From positions 1 through 61,145 of IMG/VR virus record IMGVR_UViG_3300045988_167077: DNA of 61,145 nucleotides, one strand, 5' to 3'. This DNA comes from a virus. The notes beneath the pieces are model-generated. The model made no database searches, was not told the DNA's origin, and saw nothing but the letters and a program-made list of their open reading frames with translations. Below are positions 25,921-54,086 of the stretch, one piece after another. Both the position numbers and the translations under genes were made by a program. Numbering within the stretch: position 1 is the first letter of the stretch; each line of letters opens with the position of its first letter.

Positions 25921-27231
25921 ATGAAGAAAGATGACATTAAACAGCCCGTGAGGCTAAGGGAAAAATCCCTGAAGAACGGAGTGAAGTCACTCTACCTTGA
26001 CATCTATCAGGATGGGCAAAGACGTTATCAGTATCTGAAGCTTTATATTAATCCTGGGACAGATCCGCTTACTAAGATGAAGAACAAGGCTGCTATGGAT
26101 GCCGCACGCGTAATCCAGGCAAGAAAACTTGTGGATCTGCAGTCAAGCATGGCGGACATCATGACTGCCAGCAGTCGCAGAATCAAGTTCGTGGATTATT
26201 ACCGTGAATATTACGAATCGAAGTACGATATCTCCAATAGCAGTAGAAAACGTGCAAATCATGCGCTGAACAGATGGATTGAATTCGCAGGTAAAGATGT
26301 GCTCCTTTGCAAGGTTACTTCTGAAATGCTGAGTGGCTTTGTCAAACATCTAAAGTCGTCGGTCTGCATGCACAAATGCCGAAAGGTGTCGATTTCTGCA
26401 GGTGAAGGGCGAGAGAAAAGTTTCATCCTTACGTCAGATGCAGAAAAACTCATACGGAAAATGGCTTGCGTGCAGAAAAAAACGGTTGAACAGATAGCAA
26501 AGGAAACAGGTATCAGCGAAAGCACCATTAAACATGCATATAAACGAATCATTGCAGGCCAAGAGGATAGGCGTCTGGCAGAAACAACAGTTCATATTTA
26601 CTTTATTACCGTAGCGGCGGTTTTACATAAAGCATACCGCAAAAGGCTGATACCGTCTGATCCTGCAGATATGCTTGACAGAGCGGAGCGCCCGGGTGGG
26701 CGCTCCGCGGAGAGGACTTATCTCACATTTGAGGAAGTCACTAAGATGATAGATACGGCGTGCTGCTATCCTGTGGTGAAGAACATGTTTTTATTCTCTT
26801 GCTTTACAGGCTTGCGCTACTCGGATGTAAAGGCCCTCACATGGGGAAAGATTGACGACAGCATGATAGGCACGACTATGCAGAAAACAAAGGAGCCTGT
26901 ATATGTACCGATCAGCAATAATGCCAGGAGGTGGTTGCCGGATAGAGGAGATGCGCAGGGGTCGGATTTCGTTTTCAGCGGTATGCCTACCGCGTCGGCT
27001 GTAAATAAATGTATCGACAAGTGGACGAAGGAAGCAGGCATCGATAAACATGTCACTTTTCATTGCGCCAGACACACATTCGCTACGCTTTCGTTGGAGT
27101 ACGGCGCTGATTTGTATACCATCAGCAAACTTCTGGGGCATCGAAACATTGCGACCACCCAGATATATGCCAAGATTATGGATGAAAAGAAGGTGGAGGC
27201 GGTGAACCTCATTCCTGATCTAAAAAAATAA
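25921..27231 (+). CDS. int: Tyrosine recombinase / integrase (Bacteroidota phage-integrase type)
   Basis: N-terminal arm-binding pattern VRLREKSLKNGVKSLYLDIYQDGQRRYQYL. Catalytic residues in GLRYSD, HCARHTFATL and LLGHRNIATTQIYA. ATG at 25921 is preferred over TTG at 25819. Confidence 0.9.
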   Translation: MKKDDIKQPVRLREKSLKNGVKSLYLDIYQDGQRRYQYLKLYINPGTDPLTKMKNKAAMDAARVIQARKLVDLQSSMADIMTASSRRIKFVDYYREYYESKYDISNSSRKRANHALNRWIEFAGKDVLLCKVTSEMLSGFVKHLKSSVCMHKCRKVSISAGEGREKSFILTSDAEKLIRKMACVQKKTVEQIAKETGISESTIKHAYKRIIAGQEDRRLAETTVHIYFITVAAVLHKAYRKRLIPSDPADMLDRAERPGGRSAERTYLTFEEVTKMIDTACCYPVVKNMFLFSCFTGLRYSDVKALTWGKIDDSMIGTTMQKTKEPVYVPISNNARRWLPDRGDAQGSDFVFSGMPTASAVNKCIDKWTKEAGIDKHVTFHCARHTFATLSLEYGADLYTISKLLGHRNIATTQIYAKIMDEKKVEAVNLIPDLKK

Positions 27232-41700: not shown

Positions 41701-44700
41701 CTGAAGCAGGTGGAATCCCGCGAGGGCGTTCCTTTCGAATATGCTGCGGAATTAGAGCAGGCTCGCAATCAGTATGAAGAGTATTCTGAACTGATGAAAA
41801 AGGAAATGGAAGAAAAAGAAGCCAAGTATGCTGAAATGGATAAAGATGTAGAAGCTGCTTCCGACATTTCCACTTCCGAAGAAGATGATGATGACGATTT
41901 AATGAGAGCCAGCGATACTATGTACCGCATCCGTGAAAGTGCTGCTCCCACTATAGGCGTAGGGCTTGATGTCGAAGCTGCAGCGGAAAGGCTTGCGGAA
42001 AGCCTCGGTGAGAGGGTGCGTATTGTCCGCGATGTCAATGAAATTGAGAACCAGAATAAAAATGTCCAGGAGAGCCAGAGGAAATCGAAGGGTTGGTTCA
42101 ATACCAGAACCGGAGAAATCGTCGTCGTCCTTCCGAATGCAACCGGCATTGAAGATGTCCAGGCTACAATCCTGCACGAGGCTGTGGGCCACAAGGGCTT
42201 GCGTGAACTCGTGGGAGATGACAGGTTCGATGACTTCCTGGATAAAGTGTATGCGGCTGCTACGAAGGCTACCAGATTGGAAATCGTCAGTCTCGCAAGA
42301 CGCAACCATTGGGATTTCAGGCTTGCGACTGAAGAGTATATTGCGGGCTTGGCTGAGAAAGGTTTCTCCGGGCGCGAGAACAGGACATTGTTCGGGAAGA
42401 TCAAGGATTTCTTCCTCGATATGTTGAGCAGGGCAAAGATTGCGCTGGGCTTCAATATCGGGGACAACGAACTGCGCTATATGCTGTGGCGGACATATCA
42501 GATGCGGACTTCAAGAGGTATTCTTGCGAAGGCCAATGACATGGCCGTCCAGCAGGAGCTGAAGGTCGGAAACTTCAGGGAGGATAATTCAAGTCCTGTA
42601 TCCTTCCTTAAACAGATGCAGGACAATGCGGAAACGCTGGTGCCTCGTCAGTTGACCAAAGAAATCTGGGACAATGAAATAAAAGGAAAGGTCTTCAGCA
42701 CTCCAATAGGTGTTGTAAAATTGGGCGAGAACCAATATGAAAAGAATATCAAGAAGGGTCGCGAACTTGAATTCGGCATGTTGATTCCTACCATTGAACG
42801 TCCTGATGCAATATTCGAAGAGGATGCTCCGGAGGCTGGCGCAGAAAGACAAACAAAGTATGTCTTTGTGAAATCTTTCGTTGAAAACGGAGTCAAGAAG
42901 ATAAACTACGCATCGGTTTCAGTAAGGAAGGACGGGATGGAGGTCGTTGCCAGCAGCCACTATCTTCGTGACAAACAGATGCTGAATAAAATAGAAAAAG
43001 AGCGAATGCTTTGGAACCGTTTCGCAAGCGGTTCTGAACTTTCGGCACAAGGCGGCTCGACAGCTCAAAGCAATGCTCTTTCTCTTGACGCAAATTTACT
43101 AAAAGGAGTCAAGAAAACAAATTCCGACGAGGAAATATTGTCAGGTGATGATTCAAGACTCCGTTTCAGGACCTCCGGTAATGGCGGAAGCAGCAACACT
43201 GCTCGGGACATTTACGAGGAGAAGACCCGCGTGATAGACAGAAACGGACGGAAGTCAGACACGGCCAACCTTATGCGCCGTCTGAAGGAAGCCTATGTGG
43301 ATAGCATGCAGTCTCTGAAATACCTCCAAGACGCTATTTCGGAAGAAACCGGGAAGCCTGTGGAAGACTTCGAGAACGCATACCTGGCGGAGAACTCAAT
43401 GAGTTCAAAGAACAAGGCCCAGACTGACATTTATCTGAACAGGTTCTTCAATCCTATAAAGGACGCTATCCGTGACCTCCAGAAAGAGGGAGCGGAATAT
43501 GGAGACATTGTCCGCTACCTCATGGCGAAACACGGACTCGAGCGAAACGAGGTCTTCTCAAAGAGGGATGCCGAGAAAGATGGAGGCGTCTGGGACGGTT
43601 CAGTCAGACGGGACTACTCAGGTCTGACCGAACTCACCAGAAGGGATACTGATACCGTCGCGCCTAGAATAGACGAGATCACCTCGCGAGCTGAGGATAT
43701 CGTCCGGAAGTTCGAAATGGACCATGATACGGATGTCCTGTGGGAAAAGATAAATGCCGCCACGAAGGACACCCTCCGGACGTCATATATAACGGGAATG
43801 CTCACGAAGGACAACTATGAGATGGTCCGTTCCATGTTCAGATACTATATCCCGTTGCGGGGATGGAGCGAGAATACGGCTTCGGCGGTGTACGACTATC
43901 TGAGCGATGCGAGACCGAAGACGTCATCCATAGTGAAGGCGGCTACCGGAAGAACCACCATTTCTGATGATCCGATTGCGACCATTGCCTATATGGGACA
44001 GAGTGCCATTATCCAGGGCAACAGGAATCTCATGAAGCAGAAGCTGCTTAATCTGGCTCTCAACCACAAGACTGGCCTCCTCACCGTAAGCAGGCAGTGG
44101 GAAGTGCTGGACCCTGTGACGGGAATGTGGACTCCAAGGGACCCGGATATTCCGGCCGACGCTGCCCCAGAACAGGTGGCTGACATCGTCGCCGACTTTG
44201 AGAAGGACATGAAGGAGGCGGAAAAGAAAGGCGTCGCAAGGCTCTCGAGGGGAAAACTCGATACCGGCAAGCATCTCACTGCCTATGAGGGACAGGAGCA
44301 TATCATAAAGGTCAAGCGTGGCGGGATTGATTACAGTATCTATCTGAACGGCAACCCGCGTGCAGCCCAGGCTGTCAACGGCATGACCAATCCTGATGCT
44401 GTGGACAGCTGGCTGATCCGCAAGGCCAGGGTCATAAAGAATTTTATGGCCAGGATGTTCACGTCCCAGAATCCGGCGTTCATAATATCGAACCTGAGCC
44501 GAGACGTCATTTTCGCAGGAACTGCCGTATATGCCAAAGAGGATGCGAAATATGCCGCAAGGTATGCGAAGAACATTACTGTGGCTCTGGCCAAGGGACA
44601 GCTGATAGGCCTGATCCACAGGTTCGAGACGGACAGGCTTGACAACTCGAAAGACCTGGACAGATATTTCGGAGAGTTCATACGCAATGGAGGAGAGACA

Positions 44701-46107
44701 GGTTTCACGCAACTCAATACCGTCGATGACTTCAAGCGCGACATTGACCGGTTCTCCAGGGAGATGAAGCAGGGACAGGTGATGAAAGTCTCAACTAAAG
44801 TCTGGAACGGCATCTGGGACGGCATCGAATACATGAACAGGTGCGCTGAGGATGCGACAAGGTTTTCAGTGTATATGACATCCCGCCAGATGGGGCGTAG
44901 CGTGGAAAGGAGCATCAGTGACGCAAAGGAGATTACGGTCAACTTCAACAGGAAAGGAAGCGGAGGATTCGGAGCCAGGTTGATGAACTTTGCATATATC
45001 TTCTTCAATGCTGCAGTCCAGTCGCTTGCCAATGCCGGAAAGATAATGTACGAACACCCTATGAAGGCGCTTGCCGCCCTTGGGGCATTCTCGGCTGCCG
45101 GCTTTATGGCTCCGCTTCTGGCGCAGGCGATCATATCCGCATTTGGAGGAGATGACGACGCCTATTGGGATTTGCCGGAGTGGGTACGCAGGAACAATTT
45201 TGTCTTCTATATCCCATGGAGTGAAAACAAGTTCCTTATCATTCCGATTTCCCAGGAGCTCCGTCCTTTCTATGCCATGGGCGAGATTGCGATGTCAGTG
45301 CTGATGGGCAAGGAGGAAGTCCTTGACGGATTGAAGAGCGCTGCCGGAAGTTTTATGGACCTTCTCCCTATAGACTTCATGGGGAATGGCGGAAACCTTG
45401 CGATTAGCCTTACACCTACGGTTGCACAGCCTTTCGCGCAATTGGTCGCCAATACCGATTATTTCGGAAGCCCGATTTACAGACGCAACGACTACAACAA
45501 ATTGGACCCGGCATGGACGAAGGCCTACAAGGGTACCAGTCCGATGCTGGTCAATGCGTCCAAGTGGCTGAATGAAGTGACGGGAGGAGATGATGTCAAG
45601 AGGGGATGGATAGATCCTATAAATAATCCTGCAGTCATCGAACATCTGTTTGAAAGTTATTTGGGTGGAACAGGCAAGACCATTAACAGGGCCGCAAAGA
45701 CATTCTCGATGATATGGAATCCGGACATGCGTGACATCAGGAACGTCCCGATTGCAAGCACCTTCATTCAGGAATCCGATGATGAAAGGGTCGCCGGCAA
45801 TCAGTTGAACCGGGAATACTTCAAGCTCATGGACGAGTTCAAAGAGACTAGCCACACCGTCTCCGGATACAAGAAGAAGGCGAGGATGGGCTCAATGGAA
45901 TATGCGGACAAGTTGAATGAGTTCATGGAGACCCCTGATTTTGAGAGGTACTCAAAGGCCAGAGGCTATGCCAATACGATTTCCAAATTGAGGCAGGCTT
46001 TGAAGAGAGCCCAGGAGAGCGGGGAAGATGTGATGGTCGAAGAAAACCTCCAGCAGATCCTCCATGACCTCAAGCGGCAAATGGTCGAAGAACTCAAGGA
46101 ACAGTGA
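29746..46107 (+). CDS. Giant polyvalent protein (5,453 aa): PPase-like, nucleotidyltransferase, N6-adenine MTase, SNF2 helicase, HExxH metallopeptidase, two nuclease-like modules and a C-terminal TM region
   Basis: Single stop-free 16,362-nt frame with ATG start. Multiple catalytic motif sets were read directly; see the domain sub-features. Confidence 0.9.
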   Translation: MNDNKRKLYDALSNDYDMGTYEQFRKDLEDKDKRRKLYDATSDAYDFGDYDQFEAQLGYGQSQSAPSAEEINSGSAGPVMPKPAMENRNWEVQMGNGHSRATVEKPEPVDVPVPQRPEGQEPSDDGTAASSGDVRSYLENANRQQVANLSRDISSRLDEAQTKSRDIYMKEQEDARKGGFLSTLAHAIAASGHNPEGRSGGMSDAQQRSLQGANSELQSEISKLEAAKKAMSNAEEIIAEADKSVQEGKFPGFFKGVARGFGDKLFDVNTWDMGVSDTKNSIELLKALRKYDEGKPLSESEQMLLDAKSVELATNAYFGSYIGRGYKAGAVTAQSLPFMLEMAVNPASTLGESTQSMLARYALSRFAKKGATRAAQKFATKAAGAAGRALGDIAGSAVMAGTSGAVRVAGDAIDRHVGDIKTDMDGQGQTVFAGHDPESLGKSIAKAFTSTAIENHSEMLGEYFAPALGIVSKLGRKGMEKFGLKNVVDFVDDVSATDAAKLIADFQKRTKWHGTIGEYAEEVAGNIENAILVGDNTLDASDDTGVFNLDQNIDTFLGVALMGGVFSTARTIGWRTPKYRARMEMEEARNKARTKYGSEAWQEIEDRMAEAGDSGMSAVLSTVIAGENSPEKAKALLDYAKSIKKYEGMLAGDEKRREIASPEATDLETSYENGYTLSTPQEVHDAKLMFEYQEAMLQKALGTSDIDIDTIMLGNEMGTLTDEQKSVAMDYLNAKATFDGVIDRVRDDIDSRISSVENAIDASTNRDTGMLQPASLVDDRPVHIISGIVRLTPDGTMVDTRNSENFIIVRDDKTGRMETISPSDINRLENEIDPSMEKQAARQQIQDVYGGREADSIDGVLAFNPGDTYTLTNGQGQSFPVQIVANEQGVADNGDGTVNVILNNDIDTQTGQPRITQMPKEQIQEMAEATNLSRLQQYEQQKLARAAEQAETDATGRTPENPFRINDRITLSDAETGKVENGVVGSELTDDGKYEVVVEKQDGSQSILYLSPSELEQLGARLEQPEAVEERNAPVLEQNQPVLEQNQPVLEQKTEKAEQESAMSRIPLDRDGVPQFEQAQPSDTWEALLELNSGNAVEAEDTARQMYENASKNLDKAQKTKPKSGTSVMEIQRNKAERNGQIDELRKSVDFWGKVLSFPEAVRKSASAAAEAEVRQKEDAKREAVRQAKENLAKGRKLMQQKGTYYKDDAKLGDYLDFHDYALRMIANGRVKFVWKNDADNNSIKGLGGHLGLEDSESERKALFSLLANQDKGGLRPDDAAEQLSEEYNSSLGAEVISSSEALDVILDIIRTYGGKTRDMMNAAIDAHAMAGMDERGHDEDNKSSEDKDNSKIAEGQESLPADAPLSNEINEFGVPFIESSDGTTVFGVLTDDSGLSPAPIKLSLGENAADKNGTNHGYGLLHIEAGHGDQIRAAGYSSIKDFVEDVARNYDTIREGGIVANNQTYLLELSDEHNNTLFIQLSRDGSYWNINSAGIFKKKYSRRKPEVFTRPALKTETDTDSGRVDSSRFSGATAPAGNSHQTSEGKDTNISEESNTGSEKSVAEQITEQREVVNTEPTEAQKEAGNYRMGHVKIDGMDVTIENPKGSIRRGTDADGKKWESEMHYDYGYIRGTKAVDNDHIDIFLSDNPETGNVFVVDQVNPKTGEFDESKVMYGFASEQEARDAYLSNYEKGWKGLGKITEVTREEFKKWIESSTRKTKPFSEYASVKVAEAQKEKSIQGLEGYSRDEIKGIVTDHINDVMRDYDIDAEIIGMDIHGSRNRHDARPDSDLDVVVEYSGDIREDDMFNALNGEEDALSIEGIKVDINPIRKEETGDLQDYMKQSEEYDREKSSADNQGNPVNEDSTPAGRAVKEEEKPAEVSAPAETETPKNEGAFGLVSDDRMAELKERLRKKLSGQLNMGIDPEILAIGMELAVGHIDRGVKTFADFSKKMIEDLGDVIRPYLKAFYNGARDLPEVIESGLSAEMTPYDEVRRFNVATIGENGEEKKPTILETAEQVSNELTVQRNADEVEVVVSETENTTNDVYSIAPAQYTTKRGKVLDMFLVKPNDELGTSEQRAANARVREMKGWWDKKAGGFMLRSEEDARQFVEQTFRNPIGTTASANEVQAAKTSLMSDTGSSRDEQEVNAAVGKTFKSKKGLILYVDRIDDGRVFYEITDIDGTTERYDTSIPAMADALQRWEEVTVTDNNNNNETDRTAAEQAAENKQPKNSTKKKKSVSLHTEVDDLFSGLFDEETLNSKDNENGLQRNDAVRSEGLSADGGKHTERLSEGSEKDSGSEPQERSGLNAGRKGTGVEADRSVRPRLSDTVEELAPSEHKNTHNNHSERGENHAPTSIDARIEANIKAIELAQQLIDSGEQATEKQMQVLRKFSGWGGLGKAFSDSLYSVQLQNILGAEAYQDAVMSANSAYYTPAYIVDTLWDIAEQLGFKGGNILEGSAGIGNILGQMPINISERSDIHAIEIDGTSGNILSLLYPDAKVDIQGFEQTRIPNGSVDLAITNVPFVTGLRVNDTTGDKDLSKKFHNIHDFCIAKNVRKLREGGLGIFITSNGTLDNSKQLRDWIVSEGGADFIGAFRMNNKTFGGTGVTSDIIVIRKRMNGRKSSNAIDVSTITGERSVEYDTGDTRKVKGQTVPVIKHLAMDYNRYFVEHPENMAGVMQFAFEQGDNFRPTAKGLYPEKGKNQERMLSDFVSSFKEETDTPAASDESNRTDNGYVSDASADGRKLGELYVKDSKLVVAGIGGYSPLAVNDNKVKGHTKVECFKAYAAIKDALAEVLKYQTENESDSGLKPLLAKLNKAYDDFVSTYGHFNKNTAISFLHNDVDYANVFSLEKYEETGDKSGKRVQKFDKADVFSQRVVEKEKEPNPTNVKDGIIASVFKFGRIDVPYIANQLGRSVEDVKKEIISSGYGFEDPTTKQMELSYQYLSGNVREKLRQAEANNDNGEYDGNIKALQKVIPMDIPAHLIDFTLGSSWITPKLYEDYIKDRTDIDVKLTAAGGSWFMDTPYYVNNEKNRSMGVYSEVLHNTVLGHTLIEAAIQNKTITVSRTSKKWDGTTETITDKDATQACAAKIDEIRQDFKDWARQKMQSDSEMSDEMERIYNDTFNNYVPMSIPDEFVPEYFGGASHKFKMRPHQGKAIVRGTMQPLLLAHEVGTGKTFTLISTAMEMRRLGTARKPMIVVQNATVGQFVASAKELYPNAKILTLEEADRTADGRKNFYAKIRHNDWDMIVVPQSTFEFIPDSEERQMQFVQDKIEEKKAVLENMQDADPRGESMITRQAKKEISDLEAQLAELSESASKKRSASAEKKRAVTLQNAEVKALEMLDRRTDDVENFDDMGIDALLIDEAHEYKHLGFATAMQRGVKGVDSSYSKKSQGVYLKTQAVLENNNGRNVIFATGTPISNTAAEIWTFMRYLMPADTMKEYGIYYFDDFVRNFGNIQQMLEFNTNGKFKESNRFAGYVNLPELVRIWSGISDTVLTKEAGDVKDKIPDIEGGKAQDLYLPQTKALRSIMKFVKSELQRYEQMSGREKKENSHIPLTMYGIAKSAAVDARLVSDAEDDPNSKTNEAVRQTLRSLKETASYKGTVAIFSDNYQNKKTGFNLYDDIRNKLIAQGVPDDEVVVIRPGMTMKKKLEIFDKVNRGEIRVILGSTYTLGTGVNIQERLHTLIHLDAPNRPMDYTQRNGRILRQGNLHKAMGKPVRILRFGVEDSLDVTAYQRLKTKGAIADSIMNGKQMMANNMTNRVLEEEEDVFGDTIAQLSGSEYAMLKNNAEKNVRKFESRKKQWEADQTYIHNAKPKLKAQIAEAEKRAETNRKFRKAVEQAFPGGKFDSITAGKQTFSTAEEMADFFKEHNKVILDKMKQMKEGGDDSHTRELTVRIGDYSFKVRTVLKKDIGRNGGQLFSEVRRQMTYSCPELGLEDVPVYQNLLRNAIDDIVQNVITGKNYAERVEKAEADVKHYQSELKQVESREGVPFEYAAELEQARNQYEEYSELMKKEMEEKEAKYAEMDKDVEAASDISTSEEDDDDDLMRASDTMYRIRESAAPTIGVGLDVEAAAERLAESLGERVRIVRDVNEIENQNKNVQESQRKSKGWFNTRTGEIVVVLPNATGIEDVQATILHEAVGHKGLRELVGDDRFDDFLDKVYAAATKATRLEIVSLARRNHWDFRLATEEYIAGLAEKGFSGRENRTLFGKIKDFFLDMLSRAKIALGFNIGDNELRYMLWRTYQMRTSRGILAKANDMAVQQELKVGNFREDNSSPVSFLKQMQDNAETLVPRQLTKEIWDNEIKGKVFSTPIGVVKLGENQYEKNIKKGRELEFGMLIPTIERPDAIFEEDAPEAGAERQTKYVFVKSFVENGVKKINYASVSVRKDGMEVVASSHYLRDKQMLNKIEKERMLWNRFASGSELSAQGGSTAQSNALSLDANLLKGVKKTNSDEEILSGDDSRLRFRTSGNGGSSNTARDIYEEKTRVIDRNGRKSDTANLMRRLKEAYVDSMQSLKYLQDAISEETGKPVEDFENAYLAENSMSSKNKAQTDIYLNRFFNPIKDAIRDLQKEGAEYGDIVRYLMAKHGLERNEVFSKRDAEKDGGVWDGSVRRDYSGLTELTRRDTDTVAPRIDEITSRAEDIVRKFEMDHDTDVLWEKINAATKDTLRTSYITGMLTKDNYEMVRSMFRYYIPLRGWSENTASAVYDYLSDARPKTSSIVKAATGRTTISDDPIATIAYMGQSAIIQGNRNLMKQKLLNLALNHKTGLLTVSRQWEVLDPVTGMWTPRDPDIPADAAPEQVADIVADFEKDMKEAEKKGVARLSRGKLDTGKHLTAYEGQEHIIKVKRGGIDYSIYLNGNPRAAQAVNGMTNPDAVDSWLIRKARVIKNFMARMFTSQNPAFIISNLSRDVIFAGTAVYAKEDAKYAARYAKNITVALAKGQLIGLIHRFETDRLDNSKDLDRYFGEFIRNGGETGFTQLNTVDDFKRDIDRFSREMKQGQVMKVSTKVWNGIWDGIEYMNRCAEDATRFSVYMTSRQMGRSVERSISDAKEITVNFNRKGSGGFGARLMNFAYIFFNAAVQSLANAGKIMYEHPMKALAALGAFSAAGFMAPLLAQAIISAFGGDDDAYWDLPEWVRRNNFVFYIPWSENKFLIIPISQELRPFYAMGEIAMSVLMGKEEVLDGLKSAAGSFMDLLPIDFMGNGGNLAISLTPTVAQPFAQLVANTDYFGSPIYRRNDYNKLDPAWTKAYKGTSPMLVNASKWLNEVTGGDDVKRGWIDPINNPAVIEHLFESYLGGTGKTINRAAKTFSMIWNPDMRDIRNVPIASTFIQESDDERVAGNQLNREYFKLMDEFKETSHTVSGYKKKARMGSMEYADKLNEFMETPDFERYSKARGYANTISKLRQALKRAQESGEDVMVEENLQQILHDLKRQMVEELKEQ
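32845..32903 (+). repeat. In-frame 21-bp tandem repeat (2.8 copies) inside the giant ORF
   Basis: ccggttttggaacagaatcag x2 plus a 17-nt partial copy, encoding PVLEQNQ PVLEQNQ PVLEQK. Confidence 0.9.
33850..34260 (+). other. Giant-ORF domain: nuclease/toxin-like module 1 (PBECR-like, tentative)
   Basis: PIKLSLGEN...NHGYGLLHIEAGHGDQI...LFIQLSRDGSYWNINSAG. It is related to the module at 42690-43030. Confidence 0.4.
34483..34890 (+). other. Giant-ORF domain: family I inorganic pyrophosphatase-like
   Basis: VTIENPKGS..., YDYGYIRGT..DNDHIDIFL..., GEFDESKVMYGF and YEKGWKGLGKI parallel the E. coli Ppa blocks IEIPA, NYGYI..DGDPVDVLV, EDAKLVAV and EKGKWVKVEGW. Confidence 0.7.
34960..35250 (+). other. 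Giant-ORF domain: minimal (pol-beta fold) nucleotidyltransferase
   Basis: IHGSRNRHDARPDSDLDVVVEY is a GS...DxD nucleotidyltransferase signature. Confidence 0.7.
36820..37620 (+). other. Giant-ORF domain: N6-adenine DNA methyltransferase
   Basis: SAM motif ILEGSAGIGNILG (37111-37140) and catalytic VDLAITNVPF (37309-37326), an NPPF-type variant. Confidence 0.8.
39200..40960 (+). other. Giant-ORF domain: SNF2/DEAD-like superfamily 2 helicase
   Basis: Motif I HEVGTGKT, motif II LLIDEAHEYK, motif III FATGTPISN, motif V GTGVNIQ and motif VI QRNGRILRQGN. Confidence 0.85.
42050..42450 (+). other. Giant-ORF domain: zincin-like metallopeptidase
   Basis: TILHEAVGHKGLRE is an HExxH motif (42175-42192). 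Confidence 0.6.
42690..43030 (+). other. Giant-ORF domain: nuclease/toxin-like module 2 (paralog of 33850-34260)
   Basis: PIGVVKLGENQYEKN...YVFVKSF...INYASVSVRKDGMEVVASSHY has the same order of blocks as module 1. Confidence 0.4.
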
Positions 46108-46192: not shown

Positions 46193-48178
46193 ATGTCTGA
46201 CGATATAAGACGAAAGAGCCGCGTTAAGCCGCGGGATATAAGCGAGATGGATACTGTTGCCTTTTCAAAAAACCTGGGCGACAGCAGGCGTGCCTTTGAC
46301 ATCGTACTCGAGGCACAGCAGCATTACGACAACATGCGGCGTTTCCGCGAGGACAGGGAACGTTGCAAGCGATATACTTACGGTGATCAGTGGAAAGACA
46401 TCATTACGGTCGATGGAAAACAGATGACCGAAGAGGAATATATCAAGGGCGAGGGGCAGGTCCCTTTGAAAAACAATCTCATCAGGAGACTTGTCCGGAG
46501 CGTGCTCGGCGTCTATCGCAGCCAGTCAAAGGAACCGACCTGCAGTACGCGTGACAGGAACGAGCAGAAGCTGGGTGAGATAATGAGTACGGTGCTGCAG
46601 TGCAACATGCAGAGGAACCGTATGAATGAGATATATCCCGAGTCGCTGGAGGAATTTCTTATTAGCGGTCTTGTCGTGCATCATAAGAGCTTCGGATGGA
46701 TATCTGACAAGGGACTTGACTGCTGGACGCGTGTCGTTTCTCCGGATATGTTCTTTATGGATGCTTATTCGAGGGATATCCGCGGCTGGGATATCAGTTT
46801 TGTCGGAGAAATCCATGACATTGACTTCAATACACTTGTCGGACAATTTGCGCATTCGCCTGAAGACTACAGGCGTCTAGCCGATATATACTCTTCAGCT
46901 CATGCGAGAAACAGAGGCTTTGTGGCTACATTCTGCAATGAGTTCGGACATTACAGACGTTCTAACATTGATTTTCTCGTTCCTCAAGACATAACACGTT
47001 GTAGGGTGATAGAGGTCTGGAGAAAAGAGAGTAAACCACGCTATCGGTGCCATGATTATGCGGACGGAAGTTTTTACAAGGTGGAAGTCAATGATTACCA
47101 GGCGATGGTGGAGGACGAGAATACCAGAAGAATACAGAAAGCGACGAGTCTTGGAATCCCGAAAAGTGACGTCGCTCTCATCGAAGGCGAATGGAAGATG
47201 GACGAGTATTGGTATTACTATTACCTGACACCTTTCGGAGATATTCTGCAGGAAGGTGAGACGCCATATGATCATGGAAGTCATCCTTACGTGGTCAAGG
47301 CATATCCGTTCATTGACGGAGAGATACACAGCTTTGTTGCGGACTTCATAGACCAGCAGAGATATGTGAACAGGCTGATCACCATGTATGACTGGATAAT
47401 GCGCGCCAGCGCCAAGGGCCTGCTTATATTCCCGGAAGAGTGCCTTCCTGACGACTGGAACATCGAGGATGTGGCTGAAGAATGGCACAAGTTCAATGGT
47501 GTCATTGTTGTCAAGACTAAGAATAATCCTTCAGGCAAACTGCCTCAGCAGGTTGCCTCAAACAGCACCAACATCGGAATCTCTGAATTGCTAAACCTGC
47601 AACTCAAGTTCTTCGAGGATATCAGCGGTGTTAATGGCGCTCTACAGGGCAAACCGGGATATTCTGGTATCAGTGCGAGCCTATATGCCCAGCAGACTCA
47701 GAACTCCACAACCTCGCTGCTGGACTTGATGGAGAGGTTCAGTTCATTTGTTATCGATGCCGCATATAAGGACGTGAAGAACATCCAGCAGTTCTATGAT
47801 ACCAAGAGGTATGTGAACATAGCCGGAAAGGGCGGCGCGGAAGTGGTGTATGATCCTGACAAATTTGGTGGAGTTGAATTTAACCTCAGCATTGTTGAGA
47901 GCACTACATCACCGGTATACCGTGATCTGGCAAATGATTTCCTCATGGAGATATGGAAGTCCGGACAGATCAGTCTTGAACAGCTTCTTGAGCATGGAGA
48001 TTTCCGGTTTGCGGACAATCTCCTTCAGGATATCAAGGTCCAGAAGGAAGAACTTGCCAAAGGAAATGTCCCGGAGGGACTGTCCCCTCAGATGCAGAAA
48101 CAGGTGCAGGAAGGCGCCAACATGGGTGCCGTCAATACTTTGCATGATGCGATAAGTTCTGAGGCCATGAGAAGGTAG
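46193..48178 (+). CDS. Portal protein
   Basis: 661 aa. N-terminal RFREDRERCKRYTYGDQWKD (portal-type YxGxQW block). Its size and position beside the terminase operon fit a portal. Confidence 0.75.
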   Translation: MSDDIRRKSRVKPRDISEMDTVAFSKNLGDSRRAFDIVLEAQQHYDNMRRFREDRERCKRYTYGDQWKDIITVDGKQMTEEEYIKGEGQVPLKNNLIRRLVRSVLGVYRSQSKEPTCSTRDRNEQKLGEIMSTVLQCNMQRNRMNEIYPESLEEFLISGLVVHHKSFGWISDKGLDCWTRVVSPDMFFMDAYSRDIRGWDISFVGEIHDIDFNTLVGQFAHSPEDYRRLADIYSSAHARNRGFVATFCNEFGHYRRSNIDFLVPQDITRCRVIEVWRKESKPRYRCHDYADGSFYKVEVNDYQAMVEDENTRRIQKATSLGIPKSDVALIEGEWKMDEYWYYYYLTPFGDILQEGETPYDHGSHPYVVKAYPFIDGEIHSFVADFIDQQRYVNRLITMYDWIMRASAKGLLIFPEECLPDDWNIEDVAEEWHKFNGVIVVKTKNNPSGKLPQQVASNSTNIGISELLNLQLKFFEDISGVNGALQGKPGYSGISASLYAQQTQNSTTSLLDLMERFSSFVIDAAYKDVKNIQQFYDTKRYVNIAGKGGAEVVYDPDKFGGVEFNLSIVESTTSPVYRDLANDFLMEIWKSGQISLEQLLEHGDFRFADNLLQDIKVQKEELAKGNVPEGLSPQMQKQVQEGANMGAVNTLHDAISSEAMRR

Positions 48179-48191
48179 ATTAGTTATAAAC

Positions 48192-48232
48192 GCAATAGGC
48201 CGCATTAGCCAGAAACTAATGCGGCCTATTGC
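48192..48232. terminator. Bidirectional intrinsic terminator between portal and the convergent gene
   Basis: Perfect 17-bp stem gcaataggccgcattag / ctaatgcggcctattgc with loop ccagaaa, followed by tatttt. Confidence 0.75.
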
Positions 48233-48651
48233 TATTTTATAATTGTATTGGTGTTCCTCCTGACCTTGGAACTGGAGGATATTCTTCGTAGCCAGGCACT
48301 GCGCTTCCTTTTCCTGTCCCTGATGTCCCTGGCCCTACGTTTCTCGTACCACTCGTAGTACATGCGCAATTTGATGTCGCGCATGAAATCGTCAATCGCG
48401 TTCTTCTCCTGTCTGTCCGGCGTGAAATAGAAGCATTTCATTGTGACGTCATCCATTTTGACACTGGAGTCGATGTAGTGCTTTAGCCTCATCTGTCTGA
48501 AGTTCTTTCTGTCCGTGACAATGAGCCTGATTTTCCCACCTGCGTTGGGCATTACATAATAGCGGTTTCCGCATTCTGCATGAGCCTTGTCTGCTCTCCT
48601 GACTGCTTCGCGGTATTGCAGCCATGCATAAAAACTGACAAAAATGTTCAT
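48232..48651 (-). CDS. Hypothetical protein with a basic C-terminus
   Basis: 139-aa ORF downstream of the large terminase. C-terminal RRARDIRDRKRKRSAWLRR. Confidence 0.5.
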   Translation of the reverse strand: MNIFVSFYAWLQYREAVRRADKAHAECGNRYYVMPNAGGKIRLIVTDRKNFRQMRLKHYIDSSVKMDDVTMKCFYFTPDRQEKNAIDDFMRDIKLRMYYEWYEKRRARDIRDRKRKRSAWLRRISSSSKVRRNTNTIIK

Positions 48652-48663
48652 AATATAAAGTTA

Positions 48664-50787
48664 TTAAGCAATTACCGCCTCTGTTGGGCTGTCCCACTTT
48701 GAGGCACTGTGATTCATCTTCTTTTCAATGTCAATAATCTTCGGAAGTTCCATTTCAGTGAAGCTGATCAGGAGACCGATGCCTCGCGTCATCAGGAGGT
48801 CGTCGTGCATTCCGATGATTGCTCCCCAGGCGCCGTTTGGCTTTTTCTCGTAAGTGAGGTATTCGTCAAGACACCTTTCGTCCCGTTCCGTGTATAGCCC
48901 CTTCCTGACAACCTTGACCAGCATTGACACGATCTTCGGCTTCGTGGACACGTTGGTATGGAATCCGTATTTCTTCGGCATCTGGTTCATTATGTCCTCG
49001 TCGCTTTGCGGTCGGGCATACAGGTTAGGATAGACTTCCTTTATGAGGTTCAATATGTATGAAGACTGGTCTCCGTCGACCTGTCTTTCCTTGTCATGAG
49101 TCTCGAGGGTGTTGCTCTCTATCACCAACAGCGCATTGTCATAATATGACGCTATCTGTGCGGCCTTCCATGCCAGGATATCCATGTCAATGTGGCCATA
49201 CCACTGGGCTACGACCGTAGGCTTGCCACCCTCCATTTGATATATGCGGTCGAACACGACGATACAGGACCAGTCTGATTTCTTTGCGCGTCCTCCGATG
49301 TCGACGACGACCAGATACCTGTTGACGACTCTGATCTTCGGGTCGATTTCCGGTTTGCTCCATATCCACAGGCGGCCCTGCCTGTCTTCATCAAAGCGCA
49401 GGTCGATGAACGCGTCCTTTCCTTCGTCTCCTCTTGCGCATACTTCGCCGATGAATTTAGGCGGCCTGCAGCTGCCCCTCAGGTTCTCCACCTTATATCT
49501 GTCGAATACTCTTGCGCCGCTGTGTGAGAATGCCTCAATGTCATCGGAAGGATATTCGGAAGCCATGTCTTCATCTGAGTCATGTCCGGCACGCTCGATG
49601 ATATACCAATTTATGGCATCCAGTGATGCTCCTATCGTCCATAGGTACCACAGGTACTGGCCGGATACCTCCCTGTCTGAGTTGACGTTGGCATTGTCCC
49701 TGTTGGCCCACAGCTTATAGGCGAATTCATGGAGGGCCTTTTCATCAGGGATGCGGATTGAATACTGCTCGATCTGCCACCATGCTATGAACATTGCTTC
49801 AAATTGGGACTTGCCCGTCTTCGCGGCTTCATATTCCCTATGGAAAAAGTTGCCGGCACCATTGGCAGTGGACTCATAGACTATCATGGTCAATGGCTTG
49901 TAAAGGACACCGGCACATGCGGAACGGACAATGTCCTGCGGGCGTTTTCCGTCAGTCCTCTTCCAGAGGCCGACCTCGGAGCAATGGACCAGGTTGTAAT
50001 CTCCACCTCTGGCGGAATCCGGGCGCTCGGCAGTTCCTATCTTGATCTTACATTTCCTCTGAGGTACGCGATGGATGTTGCCGCTCTTGCCGACAGCCTT
50101 GAACTTCGGCTCAGTCTCTTTATATGATTCGGATATGCTATGTAGGTATTTGACCGGGTACATGTTAATCATCCTGTTGAACATGTCCAGAATCTCATCC
50201 GAAGCCGTGCCTTGGTGTGCGACGATAAGGGAGTTGAGACCGACCTTGTGCACGAGCTGGAGCCAGGCCATATAGAGCTGTATGCATGTGGAGCCTCCCC
50301 ACTGTCTTGCTTTCAGGAGTATGAGCCTGATTGGCTTCCCGGCCAGCCTGTCACGCTCCAGGCGCTCAATGAGCCGCCTCTGCGCACGGTTCAGCCAGAA
50401 GAGCCTGTCCTCTCCTCCTCCCTTGTTCTTGATATAGACTAGAGTTGCGGCCCAGAACGGGAAATCATGCTGGAACCTGATGCGGATGAACTGCTCGATG
50501 ACCTTCTCTTTTTCCCTGTTGTTGTATTCGGACTTGAGTACATCCGTAATGAACTTCTTTATGGAACCGGCCTTCACAAGTTTCTTTACGAGAGGAACGG
50601 TGCACATCTTCTCGGGGAGCCATTGCTCTTTGAACGGAAAGTCCTCAATGACGATATGCTTTCGTGATTCGCTGAAAGTCGAACCTTCGCCGGTGACCGG
50701 ATTGAATTTCTTTTCAATCTCGGCACGGCGTTTCATGTTTTCGTCCAGAATGGCCGCGACAGCCATGCGCTCTTCTTCTGTCAGCAT
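48664..50787 (-). CDS. terL: Terminase large subunit
   Basis: 707 aa. ATPase block IRLILLKARQWGGST (Walker A-like). A C-terminal RNase H-like nuclease region of typical length follows. Confidence 0.85.
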   Translation of the reverse strand: MLTEEERMAVAAILDENMKRRAEIEKKFNPVTGEGSTFSESRKHIVIEDFPFKEQWLPEKMCTVPLVKKLVKAGSIKKFITDVLKSEYNNREKEKVIEQFIRIRFQHDFPFWAATLVYIKNKGGGEDRLFWLNRAQRRLIERLERDRLAGKPIRLILLKARQWGGSTCIQLYMAWLQLVHKVGLNSLIVAHQGTASDEILDMFNRMINMYPVKYLHSISESYKETEPKFKAVGKSGNIHRVPQRKCKIKIGTAERPDSARGGDYNLVHCSEVGLWKRTDGKRPQDIVRSACAGVLYKPLTMIVYESTANGAGNFFHREYEAAKTGKSQFEAMFIAWWQIEQYSIRIPDEKALHEFAYKLWANRDNANVNSDREVSGQYLWYLWTIGASLDAINWYIIERAGHDSDEDMASEYPSDDIEAFSHSGARVFDRYKVENLRGSCRPPKFIGEVCARGDEGKDAFIDLRFDEDRQGRLWIWSKPEIDPKIRVVNRYLVVVDIGGRAKKSDWSCIVVFDRIYQMEGGKPTVVAQWYGHIDMDILAWKAAQIASYYDNALLVIESNTLETHDKERQVDGDQSSYILNLIKEVYPNLYARPQSDEDIMNQMPKKYGFHTNVSTKPKIVSMLVKVVRKGLYTERDERCLDEYLTYEKKPNGAWGAIIGMHDDLLMTRGIGLLISFTEMELPKIIDIEKKMNHSASKWDSPTEAVIA

Positions 50788-51317
50788 GGCTTCTCGTTCA
50801 ATTTATTGACGCAGGCGGCAATGACTCCCCAGATATAGCAATAGAGGTGCAGCCAGCCGTCCACACTTCTTGGAAACAGGAATCCGGACAGGAGTGTGAT
50901 GCAGATGCATACCTGCCAGTACAGTCTTCTCTTTACGGAAAACGACAGGCTTCCCAACAGGTAATAGCAGACACCTGAAAGCCCGACCGTCATCTGGCTT
51001 GCTGGATAAAGGAAAGAAAGCAGTCCTGATGGATACGTGACGGCTATGAGATAGGCCTCAAGCAGGGTCCACGCTGAGACCTTATAGATGAATATGATGG
51101 AGAGCAGACACCAGCAGTTCATTGCGGCATGTATCAATGAAGCATGGAAGAACGGATACAACATGCGGTTTCTTATCCCGGCTCCAGGACACATTGCAAT
51201 TCCGGAAAGGTCAGGATGGAGAATACATAAGCATAGGGCTATGGCAGAATACAATAGCCCTATAATCAAGACCTTTCTCGTACTTCTGCCCAAAATTGTT
51301 CCCGTGCTTTGTACCAT
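50781..51317 (-). CDS. Rhomboid-family intramembrane serine protease
   Basis: Six hydrophobic helices. TM2 FFHASLIHAAMNCW (HxxxxHxxxN), TM4 VGLSGVCYYLLG (GxSG) and TM6 WLHLYCYIWG (catalytic His) parallel GlpG. Confidence 0.8.
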   Translation of the reverse strand: MVQSTGTILGRSTRKVLIIGLLYSAIALCLCILHPDLSGIAMCPGAGIRNRMLYPFFHASLIHAAMNCWCLLSIIFIYKVSAWTLLEAYLIAVTYPSGLLSFLYPASQMTVGLSGVCYYLLGSLSFSVKRRLYWQVCICITLLSGFLFPRSVDGWLHLYCYIWGVIAACVNKLNEKPC

Positions 51318-51712
51318 TTTCTTTTGATTTTTGAAATGATTACATGAGCGGAGCTCGGAGTGAGGTAGAACCGCGGGGCATGAGAGTTGACCACGTCAAA
51401 TGTTATATCATAGACTGAATCCATTGGACGTGTCTTTTTCAATTCAAGGAATCTTCTATATATTTCATTGAACATGGCCCGCTTGTTTGGGCGCATCGTG
51501 TCGAGTTTGTCTCCTTTCATCATTTCGAGAACCACACCTGCGGCCCGCTGCTCGCTTACCCAAAATCTTTCGGACGGCATCTCGACGGTTTTGGCGAAAA
51601 CCTCTTCCATGGTCATCCCGCACCTATGCGACATCACATATTTGAAAGCACGCATCAAGTCACGATTGCGTTCTTTCTCGTATTCGAAGTATGAACCAAA
51701 GTGCTTCATCAT
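51266..51712 (-). CDS. Hypothetical protein (candidate small terminase by position only)
   Basis: 148-aa ORF, first gene of the packaging operon. No motif recognised. Confidence 0.45.
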   Translation of the reverse strand: MMKHFGSYFEYEKERNRDLMRAFKYVMSHRCGMTMEEVFAKTVEMPSERFWVSEQRAAGVVLEMMKGDKLDTMRPNKRAMFNEIYRRFLELKKTRPMDSVYDITFDVVNSHAPRFYLTPSSAHVIISKIKRKWYKAREQFWAEVRERS

Positions 51713-51770
51713 TCCGCTCTGTTTCTATACAAATTTACCCCTTGAGATAAACAGATATGATTAGCATTCT

Positions 51771-52631
51771 TTGGGTATGGGTTATTTTAGCGACAGGAAT
51801 GAACGAATTAAATCCCTATTGTATATGGAAAATACAGGTAAAGAAACAGTTACCTCTAAAAGAGAGTTGGCCCTGCAGAGGCTGAAATCAAAATATCCGG
51901 AGGATAATTTTGACGATGATGAGGCTGTTTTTGGTCGAATTAACGGAGATTACGATGATTTCGACAGGCAGATAAAGGAACGTGACGACAGAATCGCCGG
52001 CTATGAGGCTGACGAGAAGGCTCTGGGCGAGATGTTCTCAAGCGATCCGAGGTCTGCCATGTTCATGTCAAAGTGGTCAAAAGGCGGAGACCCTTCAATA
52101 GCCCTCATCCAGGAATTCGGCAACGACATCATTGACATTATCAATGACCCCAAGAGACAGCAGGAAGTTGCTGAGGCGAACAAGGCATTTGCTGCGAGAG
52201 TCGCAAAGAACAAGGAGTATGAGGAAGAGTACAAGAAGAACCTTGACCGGTCGCTGCAGACCATTGAAGACATGAAGGCAAAAGGCGTTTCCGATGATGA
52301 GATTGACGCTATAATGTCTGCTACGATAGCTATCGTAAGTGATGGGCTCAGAGGAATCTTCTCTCCAGAGACCTTGGACATGGTACGTAAAGCAATCAGT
52401 CATGACAGGGATGTCAGCGCAGCTTCTGAAGAGGGCGAGATCAGGGGACGAAACGCAAAGATAGAAGAGAGGCTCAGGCGTCCGGCAAAAGGCGACGGGA
52501 CCCCAACTCTCGGCGGAGGGAATGGAGGAAACGCACCTGCAGGCAAACCAATGGGAGCATTGGAGCGGTTCGGTGAAGGAAATACTTCAATCTGGGACAA
52601 GGGCGGCGAGAAGCGAATTCAACATAGATAA
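51771..52631 (+). CDS. Scaffolding-like protein
   Basis: Acidic helical 286-aa ORF immediately upstream of the capsid gene. The listed start is TTG; ATGs at 51777 and 51825 are alternatives. Confidence 0.6.
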   Translation: MGMGYFSDRNERIKSLLYMENTGKETVTSKRELALQRLKSKYPEDNFDDDEAVFGRINGDYDDFDRQIKERDDRIAGYEADEKALGEMFSSDPRSAMFMSKWSKGGDPSIALIQEFGNDIIDIINDPKRQQEVAEANKAFAARVAKNKEYEEEYKKNLDRSLQTIEDMKAKGVSDDEIDAIMSATIAIVSDGLRGIFSPETLDMVRKAISHDRDVSAASEEGEIRGRNAKIEERLRRPAKGDGTPTLGGGNGGNAPAGKPMGALERFGEGNTSIWDKGGEKRIQHR

Positions 52632-52661: not shown

Positions 52662-54086
52662 ATGAAGAAATTCAAAATTGGAAAAGTAATCCTATCGACG
52701 TTGCTGTCAGTGCTTTGCTTTATGCTTGGCGCTCAGTCAGGCGTCATGATGGCAGCGGCCAGCGAACTTCCTGATGCAGGAGTCACAGCTTCAGGTAATC
52801 CTGGTGATGGCGGCGGAGCAGGTATCGCAACGGAATCCGAAGGGCGCGAGGCTGGCGATCCGGAATTCTACTCAAAGGAAATCGACAAGCGAATCACGAA
52901 GATCCGCCCTATGGCGACACCTGTAGACCAGATTAGCCGTTATGCGAAATCTGTATCTACCAACAGCTTTGAAGTGAAATACTATTCAGTCGGTACCAGA
53001 CCTATCGTATGTACCACTTCAGGCGAGATTGCAAAGCAGACCCAGGGAGAATCAGTCTCACTGCCTGTCGATGACGCCAACATGTTTACTCTCGATGATA
53101 CCATCAGGGTAGTGGGCGTGAAGGGTGAGTTCGACTACACTGGTGCTGCCTACAACAAGAGTGACGAGAATACTCCTGACCTTGTGCTGAAGGTTTGCGG
53201 CAGGGATGCCAGCACTTCAATGCCGACCGTGTACGCGGTGAACGGTCTGAAGGATTCAACCGGCAGGACAATCTGGCTTCCGGCCATTCCTAACGGGACC
53301 AAGCTCGTGCGAATGGGCAAGGCATGTGCCGAGCTCAGCGTGCAGACCGGACGCTTCAACAACATTCCTACATCCGAGGTTCAGTACTGCCAGAACTTCA
53401 TGATTCAGGTTGAGCAGTCGACATTCGACAAGATTGCCAAGAAGGAAGTGGACTGGACATTCTCTGACCTCGAGGAGGACGGAATCTATGACATGAAGTT
53501 GGCTCAGGAGAATACCTATCTCTGGGGCGTCAAGAACGTCATCTCACACTCTACCAGCGACTCCATGAAGACATGGTTCACCGGAGGTATCTGGTGGATG
53601 GCAGGAAAGGATATCGAAGTCGGAACTTACGACGCCCAGACCAAGACGACTACAATCTCCGATGACAATCTTGTGGACATCGCAAAGGATCTGTTTGTCG
53701 GCACAGGTATCGGAAACAAGAAGAAGGTGCTTCTTGTCGGTTCTGACATGCTTGCCGCTTTCTCTAAGATCAAGAGTGAGAAATTCAGGCTCAAGGATAC
53801 TGTGGAGGTATGGAACCTCAAGTTCAAGTCCTGGGATACCGACTTCGGCGAGCTGCTCACAATCCATCACGAGCTGTTTGATGCGAACGGAATGAGCGAC
53901 TGCGGCTTTGCCCTGGATCCGGAGTATTTGACGAAGGCCGTACACGTGTCATGGTCAAGAAACATCCTCGACCTGAAGAAGGCAGGTGTCAGGAACACCA
54001 ATGCCGTAGTCATGCAGGAGGTTGCCTGTCTCTATCTGAGATATGCCAAGGCACATGCCAGAATGAGACTTGCACATGCAGCCTAG
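52662..54086 (+). CDS. Major capsid protein (HK97-fold type)
   Basis: 474 aa, following the scaffold gene. Contains the EFYSKEIDKRITKIRPMATPVDQISRYAKS block and is followed by a terminator. The N-terminal 30 aa look like a signal peptide, so the start is uncertain (alternatives at 52722, 52746 and 52749). Confidence 0.75.
   Translation: MKKFKIGKVILSTLLSVLCFMLGAQSGVMMAAASELPDAGVTASGNPGDGGGAGIATESEGREAGDPEFYSKEIDKRITKIRPMATPVDQISRYAKSVSTNSFEVKYYSVGTRPIVCTTSGEIAKQTQGESVSLPVDDANMFTLDDTIRVVGVKGEFDYTGAAYNKSDENTPDLVLKVCGRDASTSMPTVYAVNGLKDSTGRTIWLPAIPNGTKLVRMGKACAELSVQTGRFNNIPTSEVQYCQNFMIQVEQSTFDKIAKKEVDWTFSDLEEDGIYDMKLAQENTYLWGVKNVISHSTSDSMKTWFTGGIWWMAGKDIEVGTYDAQTKTTTISDDNLVDIAKDLFVGTGIGNKKKVLLVGSDMLAAFSKIKSEKFRLKDTVEVWNLKFKSWDTDFGELLTIHHELFDANGMSDCGFALDPEYLTKAVHVSWSRNILDLKKAGVRNTNAVVMQEVACLYLRYAKAHARMRLAHAA

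Follow-up and report, generated by a model that had tools for sequence, protein, structure and literature searches.

Why should a temperate phage encode an intramembrane protease among the genes that build and fill its head? The question is raised by a gene in the IMG/VR virus record IMGVR_UViG_3300045988_167077, positions 1 to 61,145 of which were analysed here (61,145 nucleotides (nt), hereafter the window). The source is a temperate phage of gut Bacteroidales with a genome of ~64 kb, most of which lies in the window; the genes present include those for an integrase, RecT, a P22-like portal, an SU10-type capsid protein, an endolysin and a polyvalent protein of 5453 amino acids (aa). The gene in question encodes a rhomboid protease and overlaps the gene of the large terminase subunit, TerL. 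The enzyme class is familiar and database records already bear the rhomboid label: the existence of the gene is not new, it is only unstudied. What is new is that a large and prevalent phage clade has the rhomboid as a strictly conserved core gene, in a fixed place beside the capsid genes, and pairs it with a major capsid protein (MCP) bearing a membrane-anchor-like leader and a conserved motif. This pairing is the basis of the answer proposed below, tentatively, to the opening question.

Identity of the rhomboid protein

A sequence-only reading of the window had claimed a 178-aa open reading frame (ORF) with six hydrophobic helices and the three hallmarks of rhomboids, and these are present as described. 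The segment FFHASLIHAAMN supplies the oxyanion-hole residues H58, H63 and N67 of TM2, GLSGVCYYLLG contains S114, and WLHLYCYIWG contains H157; the catalytic Ser sits within a GxSG motif (G112-L-S114-G115) at the start of transmembrane (TM) helix 4, and the catalytic His lies in TM6. The AlphaFold2 model (predicted local distance difference test score, pLDDT, 90.0; predicted template-modelling score, pTM, 0.87) displays six TM helices, at residues 14-33, 61-77, 82-103, 114-123, 131-146 and 151-173, together with an L1 helix at 48-56. Upon comparison of the model with the Protein Data Bank (PDB) by Foldseek, the top 31 matches were all GlpG, with TM-scores of 0.54-0.68, and iRhom and Der1 came next.

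The same reading had staked the identification on a Pfam search and on the conservation of the catalytic residues among homologues. The Pfam Rhomboid profile (PF01694) matches residues 53-168 with 30.9 bits, above the gathering cut-off of 22.6 bits (E 3.6e-7), and seven distant phage homologues each exceed this cut-off singly, with 24.9-58.6 bits. H58, H63, N67, G112, S114 and H157 are invariant in 64/64 diverse phage homologues. A profile built on 46 homologues matches Haemophilus influenzae GlpG (2nr9) in the PDB with E 0.003, and comparison of the gene with a 96%-identical relative revealed 17 synonymous and 8 non-synonymous codon changes. With profile, fold and conservation evidence in agreement, a chance match is excluded: the protein is a member of the rhomboid family (PF01694, MEROPS S54), its catalytic apparatus is intact as far as residues and model can tell, and protease activity is predicted.

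GlpG of Escherichia coli and H. influenzae resembles the phage protein in its six-TM core, predicted cytoplasmic termini, HxxxxHxxxN motif, GxSG Ser and TM6 His, with TM-scores of up to 0.68. The differences are equally clear: identity amounts to 14-20%, and the phage protein is devoid of the cytoplasmic N-terminal domain, has a short L1 loop and carries xR (N50-R51) instead of the WR motif. R51 sits 7 residues before H58, the corresponding distance in GlpG (R137 to H145) being 8, and the residue that precedes it is N50, not W; among the 64 homologues this position is R in 46 and H in 17. An 'xR' variant of the WR motif is accepted for some rhomboid classes (PMC12615303). Whereas GlpG has a role in quality control of orphan membrane proteins, the phage enzyme is encoded inside the head and packaging genes. 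As for orientation, nine Lys/Arg residues are located in the N-tail, the TM2-3 loop, the TM4-5 loop and the C-tail versus three in L1, L3 and L5, and by the positive-inside rule the termini are therefore predicted to be cytoplasmic and the active site to face the periplasm, as in GlpG.

The sole NCBIfam match of the protein is to rhombosortase (TIGR03902), of which it is a non-member: the score of 21.1 bits falls far under the 84-bit cut-off. This result marks it out as a minimal rhomboid of its own subfamily. The GlyGly-CTERM C-terminal signal was not seen in the window proteins inspected, and PHROGs contains no family for the rhomboid protein. Viral rhomboids have been recorded elsewhere. 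BFVD harbours about seven viral rhomboid folds, from a few metagenomic phages and giant viruses, all of them uncharacterised, and the rhomboid label is also found in metagenomic phage annotations. A 2025 review of the rhomboid superfamily is silent on phages and viruses (PMC12615303). As the sequence-only reading had supposed, the literature searched contains no functionally characterised phage rhomboid, the full-text matches being genome-annotation mentions only.

The rhomboid locus in Bacteroidales phages

Among 50,697 deposited phage genomes, rhomboid relatives occur in three only: BS-TP4, BKO1-TP3 and BF1-TP2, Bacteroides temperate phages published in December 2025. All three carry true orthologues in the same position, none of which has been characterised. 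The paper on these Bacteroides isolates never mentions the rhomboid gene, and reports BS-TP4 in 31% of 930 human gut viromes (PMC12694917). Automatic annotation named the product 'rhomboid' in BS-TP4 (gp8) and BF1-TP2 (gp59). The deposited records contain two errors: the BKO1-TP3 orthologue (PQ571269.1; L002 8013-8531) is labelled 'glycoside hydrolase', and the TerL of all three isolate phages (PQ571277.1 and PQ571263.1 included) is labelled 'tail spike protein'. A megablast search with the 5-kb region returned no match in the 50,697 phage records.

In a collection of 5.8 billion proteins, 45 rhomboid clusters were identified, with lengths of 152-222 aa and on contigs of up to ~72 kb, and 184 stretches in IMG/VR encode the protein. 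A survey of synteny, suggested by the earlier reading, disclosed the same arrangement at 82/82 loci selected by the rhomboid: MCP, scaffold, divergent 148-aa gene, rhomboid, TerL, 139-aa gene and convergent portal. To avoid the bias of selecting by the rhomboid, a second sample of loci was drawn by MCP, and here 78/78 loci with flanking genes carry the rhomboid. Four more locus scans, one starting from leaderless MCPs and three from distant leader-bearing MCPs (small alignments), added lineages in which the MCP is only 26-45% identical, yet a rhomboid of 151-179 aa is present. Overall, the gene was found at 336 of the 487 fetched loci.

The rhomboid-bearing loci form one large clade in the MCP tree. 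Those loci inside the clade that are rhomboid-negative have their upstream DNA missing, with the exception of one rearranged contig (L384). The gene diverges rapidly, with 40-61% identity among relatives against 71-92% for the MCP and 57-83% for TerL, and is nevertheless never lost. Far from being a sporadic passenger, the rhomboid thus belongs to the fixed gene core of a large Bacteroidales phage clade. In the rearranged contig (IMGVR_UViG_3300045988_149086), homology to near-identical relatives starts exactly at the divergent promoter region, at position 9161, and unrelated sequence occupies the place of the rhomboid operon, owing to rearrangement or to chimeric assembly. Two further loci that had appeared to be exceptions to the presence of rhomboid or leader (L121 and L041) and four MCPs scored as 'no leader' were rejected as artefacts of ATG-only ORF calling or of the regular expression.

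The sequence-only reading had linked the rhomboid to the terminase, and in the window this link holds. The TGA of the rhomboid gene and the ATG of terL overlap by 7 nt (ATGCTGA, 50781-50787), exactly as had been read; the rhomboid start overlaps the end of the 148-aa ORF by 52 nt, and the 139-aa ORF begins 12 nt after terL. The -7 promoter consensus of Bacteroides is TAnnTTTG, and a motif of this type, TAAATTTG, precedes the start codon of the 148-aa gene by 17 nt, within the 58 nt that separate the rhomboid operon from the divergent scaffold/MCP operon. No terminator-like hairpins were found within the block that extends from the 148-aa gene to the 139-aa gene, and a hairpin follows its end. 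Judged from the two overlaps, the promoter motif, the uninterrupted interior and the terminal hairpin, the four genes are a single late transcription unit, and the view of a phage-encoded rhomboid co-transcribed with TerL is backed by profile, fold, conservation and operon evidence alike. The terminase is not, however, the conserved partner. In a distant sub-lineage of six loci (L240-L244, L249), TerL has moved to a distance of 8-10 kb, yet the overlap of the 148-aa gene with the rhomboid persists, and both remain divergent from scaffold and MCP; the conserved linkage is therefore to the capsid genes, not to the terminase. The place beside scaffold and MCP is kept across MCP divergence down to ~30% identity.

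The 148-aa gene precedes the rhomboid at every rhomboid-positive locus. Its product yields a confident, all-helical AlphaFold2 model (pLDDT 90.9), despite which no Pfam, NCBIfam, PDB-sequence or PDB-fold match was obtained. The protein holds two copies of a motif, PSERFWVSEERAA..VV and APRFYLTPSSAHVII. Homologues exist also without a rhomboid, directly upstream of TerL at one locus (L167) and in the satellite-like islands described below; in rhomboid-less environmental relatives, a 71-aa gene in the same place upstream of TerL resembles one repeat of the 148-aa protein. Position and presence in the islands indicate that this is probably a small-terminase-like (TerS-like) DNA-binding protein. 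If so, the ancestor would have possessed adjacent TerS-like and TerL genes, and the rhomboid would have been inserted between them once.

Table 1. Positions of the rhomboid operon, the capsid genes and the lysis genes in the window.
Feature	Position	Strand	Remarks
Rhomboid intramembrane serine protease gene	50781-51317	(-)	178 aa, ATG to TGA; minimal six-TM core
Rhomboid catalytic Ser114 codon	50976-50978	(-)	
Rhomboid catalytic His157 codon	50847-50849	(-)	
Rhomboid TM2 codons (His58; His63; Asn67)	51144-51146; 51129-51131; 51117-51119	(-)	
148-aa all-helical protein	51266-51712	(-)	phrog_27246; first gene of the operon
Large terminase subunit TerL	48664-50787	(-)	707 aa; PHROG terminase families
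139-aa protein	48232-48651	(-)	phrog_22658; last gene of the operon; conserved downstream of TerL
Bacteroides-type -7 promoter motif TAAATTTG	51730-51737	(-)	Read by eye; putative function
Hairpin, 17-bp stem	48192-48232		Between the convergent portal gene and the operon end; likely bidirectional terminator
Scaffold-like acidic protein	51771-52631	(+)	284-286 aa; phrog_22323; divergent from the rhomboid operon; position conserved in all loci
Major capsid protein	52662-54086	(+)	474 aa; SU10-type HK97 fold from residue 71; Pfam SU10_MCP E 1.2e-30; phrog_26635
MCP N-terminal leader	52662-52871	(+)	Proposed rhomboid substrate
Leader, Lys-rich tail MKKFKIGK	52662-52685	(+)	
Leader, hydrophobic stretch VILSTLLSVLCFML	52686-52727	(+)	
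Leader, nearly invariant motif GAQSGVMMAAASELPDAG	52728-52781	(+)	Followed by a variable Gly/acidic linker
Portal protein, P22-like	46193-48178	(+)	Convergent with the rhomboid operon; Pfam P22_portal E 2.6e-38
Lysis cassette	59372-60968	(+)	Alternative candidate substrates
125-aa coiled-coil protein with N-terminal TM	59372-59749	(+)	Holin or i-spanin-like
Endolysin	59730-60365	(+)	phrog_181
166-aa lipobox (LLASC) protein with C-terminal TM	60468-60968	(+)	u-spanin-like

The leader of the major capsid protein

When all proteins encoded in the window were scanned for hydrophobic segments, the MCP emerged as the only structural protein with a predicted TM segment. The segment belongs to an N-terminal leader that is composed of a Lys-rich tail, a hydrophobic stretch and a nearly invariant motif. 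The sequence-only reading had listed a holin, a spanin-like lipoprotein, the giant protein and host proteins as potential substrates; the MCP leader, the strongest candidate found, was missing from that list. The leader is shared by 39 distinct sequences of the loci examined first and by 120 protein clusters, and a signal-anchor-like leader occurs at 307/307 rhomboid-positive loci, with the consensus GAxSGVxMAxA[ST]xLPDAG after the hydrophobic stretch. When conservation is followed column by column, G23, A24, S26, G27, V28, M30, A31, A33, L36, P37, D38, A39 and G40 are almost as strictly conserved as the capsid core, in contrast to the variable hydrophobic core and linker of the leader. Ordinary signal peptides do not have c-regions of such invariance, which suggests that a specific partner recognizes the motif.

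Leaders of this kind are widespread: most SU10-type MCP homologues retrieved from a search of 1.84 billion proteins, down to 28% identity, open with a hydrophobic leader rich in Lys. In Porphyromonas phages, signal peptides predicted on MCPs were noticed earlier, and their cleavage was attributed, without evidence, to a prohead protease (PMC10367356). In the window, Pfam searches of 37 proteins or segments, covering the head module though not every ORF, detected no peptidase family other than Rhomboid, and PHROGs searches of 17 proteins from the head, lysis and integrase regions detected no conventional prohead protease.

On the strength of the conserved pairing, it is proposed that the MCP leader is, in one form or another, the substrate of the rhomboid, a view towards which we lean while granting it somewhat less than an even chance. 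A fuller version, in which the cut releases a membrane-tethered MCP precursor and licenses capsid assembly, the rhomboid being made together with the terminase, is more doubtful. According to this scheme, the MCP would be synthesized with its signal-anchor-like leader and thereby tethered to the inner membrane, and the rhomboid would cut the conserved motif of small residues just past the hydrophobic stretch. The candidate cut site, V28-x-M30-A31 | D/A/E32-A33, would offer a small P1, an often acidic P1' and a hydrophobic P4. Published determinants of rhomboid cleavage include a small P1, an acidic P1' and, where the TM segment ends in the outer leaflet, small residues that break the helix (PMC2941825). 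Cleavage would free the MCP for assembly, so that the rhomboid would substitute for a prohead maturation protease, and co-expression with the terminase would couple MCP release to packaging.

Several known systems provide partial parallels. In Providencia stuartii, the small rhomboid AarA matures one specific protein, TatA, by removing a short N-terminal piece beside a TM segment, at a motif with a small P1 and helix breakers (PMC2941825). TatA is N-out/C-in and is retained in the membrane after the cut, whereas the MCP is predicted to be N-in and has to become a soluble cytoplasmic protein; no sequence relation exists beyond the rhomboid family. Rhombosortase likewise combines a rhomboid of minimal size with a dedicated signal, consisting of a Gly-rich motif, a TM segment and a basic cluster. 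The MCP leader mirrors that signal (basic cluster, TM segment, GAxSG motif) at the N-terminus instead of the C-terminus, and no GlyGly-CTERM proteins are involved. The prohead proteases, such as HK97 gp4, T4 gp21 and lambda gpC, would be functional analogues in that they too are late products of head-module genes and remove an N-terminal MCP propeptide, as is proposed here for the rhomboid. These enzymes are soluble, packaged in the prohead and of unrelated folds (herpesvirus-assemblin-like, ClpP/S49), whereas the rhomboid is an integral membrane protein that could act only before assembly. It displays no homology to the known prohead protease folds (S78, U9/U35, S49/ClpP-like).

A number of observations weigh against the leader as substrate. 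The site matches the published recognition motif only loosely, and matches of this quality often arise by chance. The Lys-rich N-tail and the acidic flank downstream predict an N-in/C-out leader. In that orientation the capsid body would come to lie in the periplasm, and a rhomboid facing the periplasm would meet the motif in reverse polarity. A hairpin could circumvent this obstacle, although it is conjecture: the leader would cross from inside to outside, turn at GAxSG on the periplasmic face and lead the motif back from outside to inside. The capsid body would thus stay cytoplasmic, the motif would be shown in the usual N-out to C-in polarity, and a cut near the turn would let the freed MCP slip back into the cytoplasm. 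Earlier discussion of rhomboid substrates has included one of type II (Star) and the 'looping back' of a motif into the active site (PMC2941825). The return arm of the hairpin (VMMADASxLPDAG) is, however, short and carries charges.

The distribution of the leader, which is older and more widespread than the rhomboid, also tells against a strict dependence. Co-occurrence of leader and rhomboid failed in one direction: rhomboid implies leader, leader implies nothing about rhomboid. Rhomboid-negative relatives have the leader in 76 cases and are devoid of it in 43, and the resulting contrast (307/0 versus 76/43) is phylogenetically non-independent, as the rhomboid clade is approximately one lineage. 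The same reservation applies to a suggestive asymmetry, itself phylogenetically non-independent, between the rhomboid clade, where the leader is never lost, and a satellite-like clade without rhomboid nested in it, where it was lost in 45/80 and kept in 35/80. These 35 satellite-like islands bear a leader without a rhomboid. Approximately 48 environmental phage loci, moreover, encode MCPs with hydrophobic leaders, often longer or double and with a GAxGVxMA-like stretch; neither a rhomboid nor an alternative membrane protease, nor any other multi-TM protein, was found within 6-10 kb of the MCP there. A phage rhomboid is consequently not generally needed for this capsid design. Host signal peptidase, whose AxA pattern fits, or a host rhomboid could cut the leader, or it could stay uncut.

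The islands deserve a description of their own. The idea that leaderless MCP homologues belong to rhomboid-less sister phages was rejected, as they are small satellite-like islands in Muribaculaceae and Porphyromonadaceae genomes, half of them with a leader. The islands (L255-L334, from metagenome-assembled genomes of Muribaculaceae, Porphyromonadaceae and Bacteroides) are flanked by host metabolic genes. They encode scaffold-like and portal-like proteins, a homologue of the 148-aa protein and an SU10-type MCP that may or may not bear a leader; neither TerL nor a rhomboid was found in their vicinity. The islands resemble phage satellites that form capsids and descend from the clade of rhomboid phages.

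To our knowledge, natural substrates have been established for only a handful of bacterial rhomboids, and in the present case the genome context singles out one candidate that can be tested. If the MCP leader is indeed the substrate, tailed phages would have a new route to mature or license capsid assembly, with intramembrane proteolysis as the maturation or licensing step: a kind of capsid maturation not described before, and the first rhomboid with a viral structural protein as natural substrate. It would also explain why many capsid proteins of Bacteroidota phages resemble secreted proteins, and would provide rhomboid research with a simple enzyme-substrate pair that has a clear read-out. 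The three cultured lysogens make the experiment feasible. Should the link to the capsid fail, a strictly conserved intramembrane protease in the head and packaging block of a phage would still call for an explanation.

Other substrates and other genes of the window

An unlikely alternative is that the rhomboid acts on inner-membrane proteins of the host late in infection and that the MCP leader is unrelated to it. The enzyme might reshape the envelope, prevent superinfection, or eliminate a quality-control factor or a defence effector anchored in the membrane. GlpG reportedly acts on orphan respiratory subunits. Bacterial rhomboids do act on cellular membrane proteins, as exemplified by the cleavage of TatA by AarA (PMC2941825), and the gp93 rhomboid of the Stenotrophomonas phages DLP3 and DLP5 is encoded in an accessory region beside envelope-modifying genes, not in the head module. 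The fast divergence of the rhomboid relative to MCP and TerL is likewise common for host-interaction genes. Genes for takeover or anti-defence are, however, usually early, patchy and mobile, whereas this one overlaps morphogenesis genes translationally, lies in a late operon, is never lost in the clade and retains its position by scaffold and MCP down to MCP identities of ~30%.

We consider it quite unlikely that the rhomboid processes a lysis protein and thus sets the timing of lysis. Both candidates, the holin or i-spanin-like protein and the u-spanin-like protein, are encoded in the window and contain Gly/Ser in their TM segments, and expression is late. The u-spanin-like protein has the classical type I orientation (N-out/C-in), the canonical topology of rhomboid substrates, and similar proteins with a lipobox and a C-terminal TM segment are found at distant rhomboid-positive loci. 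Yet the cassette is ~8 kb off, with structural genes in between and no conserved linkage to the rhomboid, such spanins and holins are common in rhomboid-less phages, and cutting the anchor of a spanin would inactivate it.

A variant of the proposal for the MCP leader assigns the first cut to host signal peptidase or another host enzyme, leaving the rhomboid to clear leftover leader peptides or membrane-stuck capsid precursors. In such a role, akin to that of a signal peptide peptidase, it would dispose of thousands of leaders and keep the membrane intact until lysis; the chance of this seems slim. The conserved A31-x-A33, a small-x-small pattern, suits signal peptidase I; relatives whose leaders are similar get by without a rhomboid; and the short hydrophobic core with its GAxSG stretch would be typical of a rhomboid substrate. 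E. coli employs intramembrane proteases (RseP) for the removal of signal peptides (PMC8144685). A signal peptidase site must, however, be exposed to the periplasm, which leads to the same topology problem, and the c-regions of ordinary signal peptides fall far short of the motif in conservation.

It is scarcely credible that the substrate is the one hydrophobic stretch (aa 5108-5126) of the 5453-aa polyvalent protein, whose gene adjoins that of the portal, since large proteins with the same kind of stretch are encoded in rhomboid-negative loci (L252 and L253), or that the rhomboid is a domesticated, non-protease passenger in the lytic cycle, given catalytic residues that are invariant over deep divergence.

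The polyvalent ORF itself extends over positions 29746-46107, just upstream of the portal gene, and combines LPD14, inorganic pyrophosphatase, nucleotidyltransferase, SNF2 helicase, PBECR2 nuclease and LPD38 domains; relatives have shorter equivalents of 1100-1900 aa at the same place. A replication and recombination module (18029-20980 and 10937-11770) encodes RecT, a PD-(D/E)XK nuclease fused to an FtsK/HerA-like ATPase, and a PAPS-reductase-like protein. The integrase gene, at 25921-27231, confirms the temperate lifestyle of the phage.

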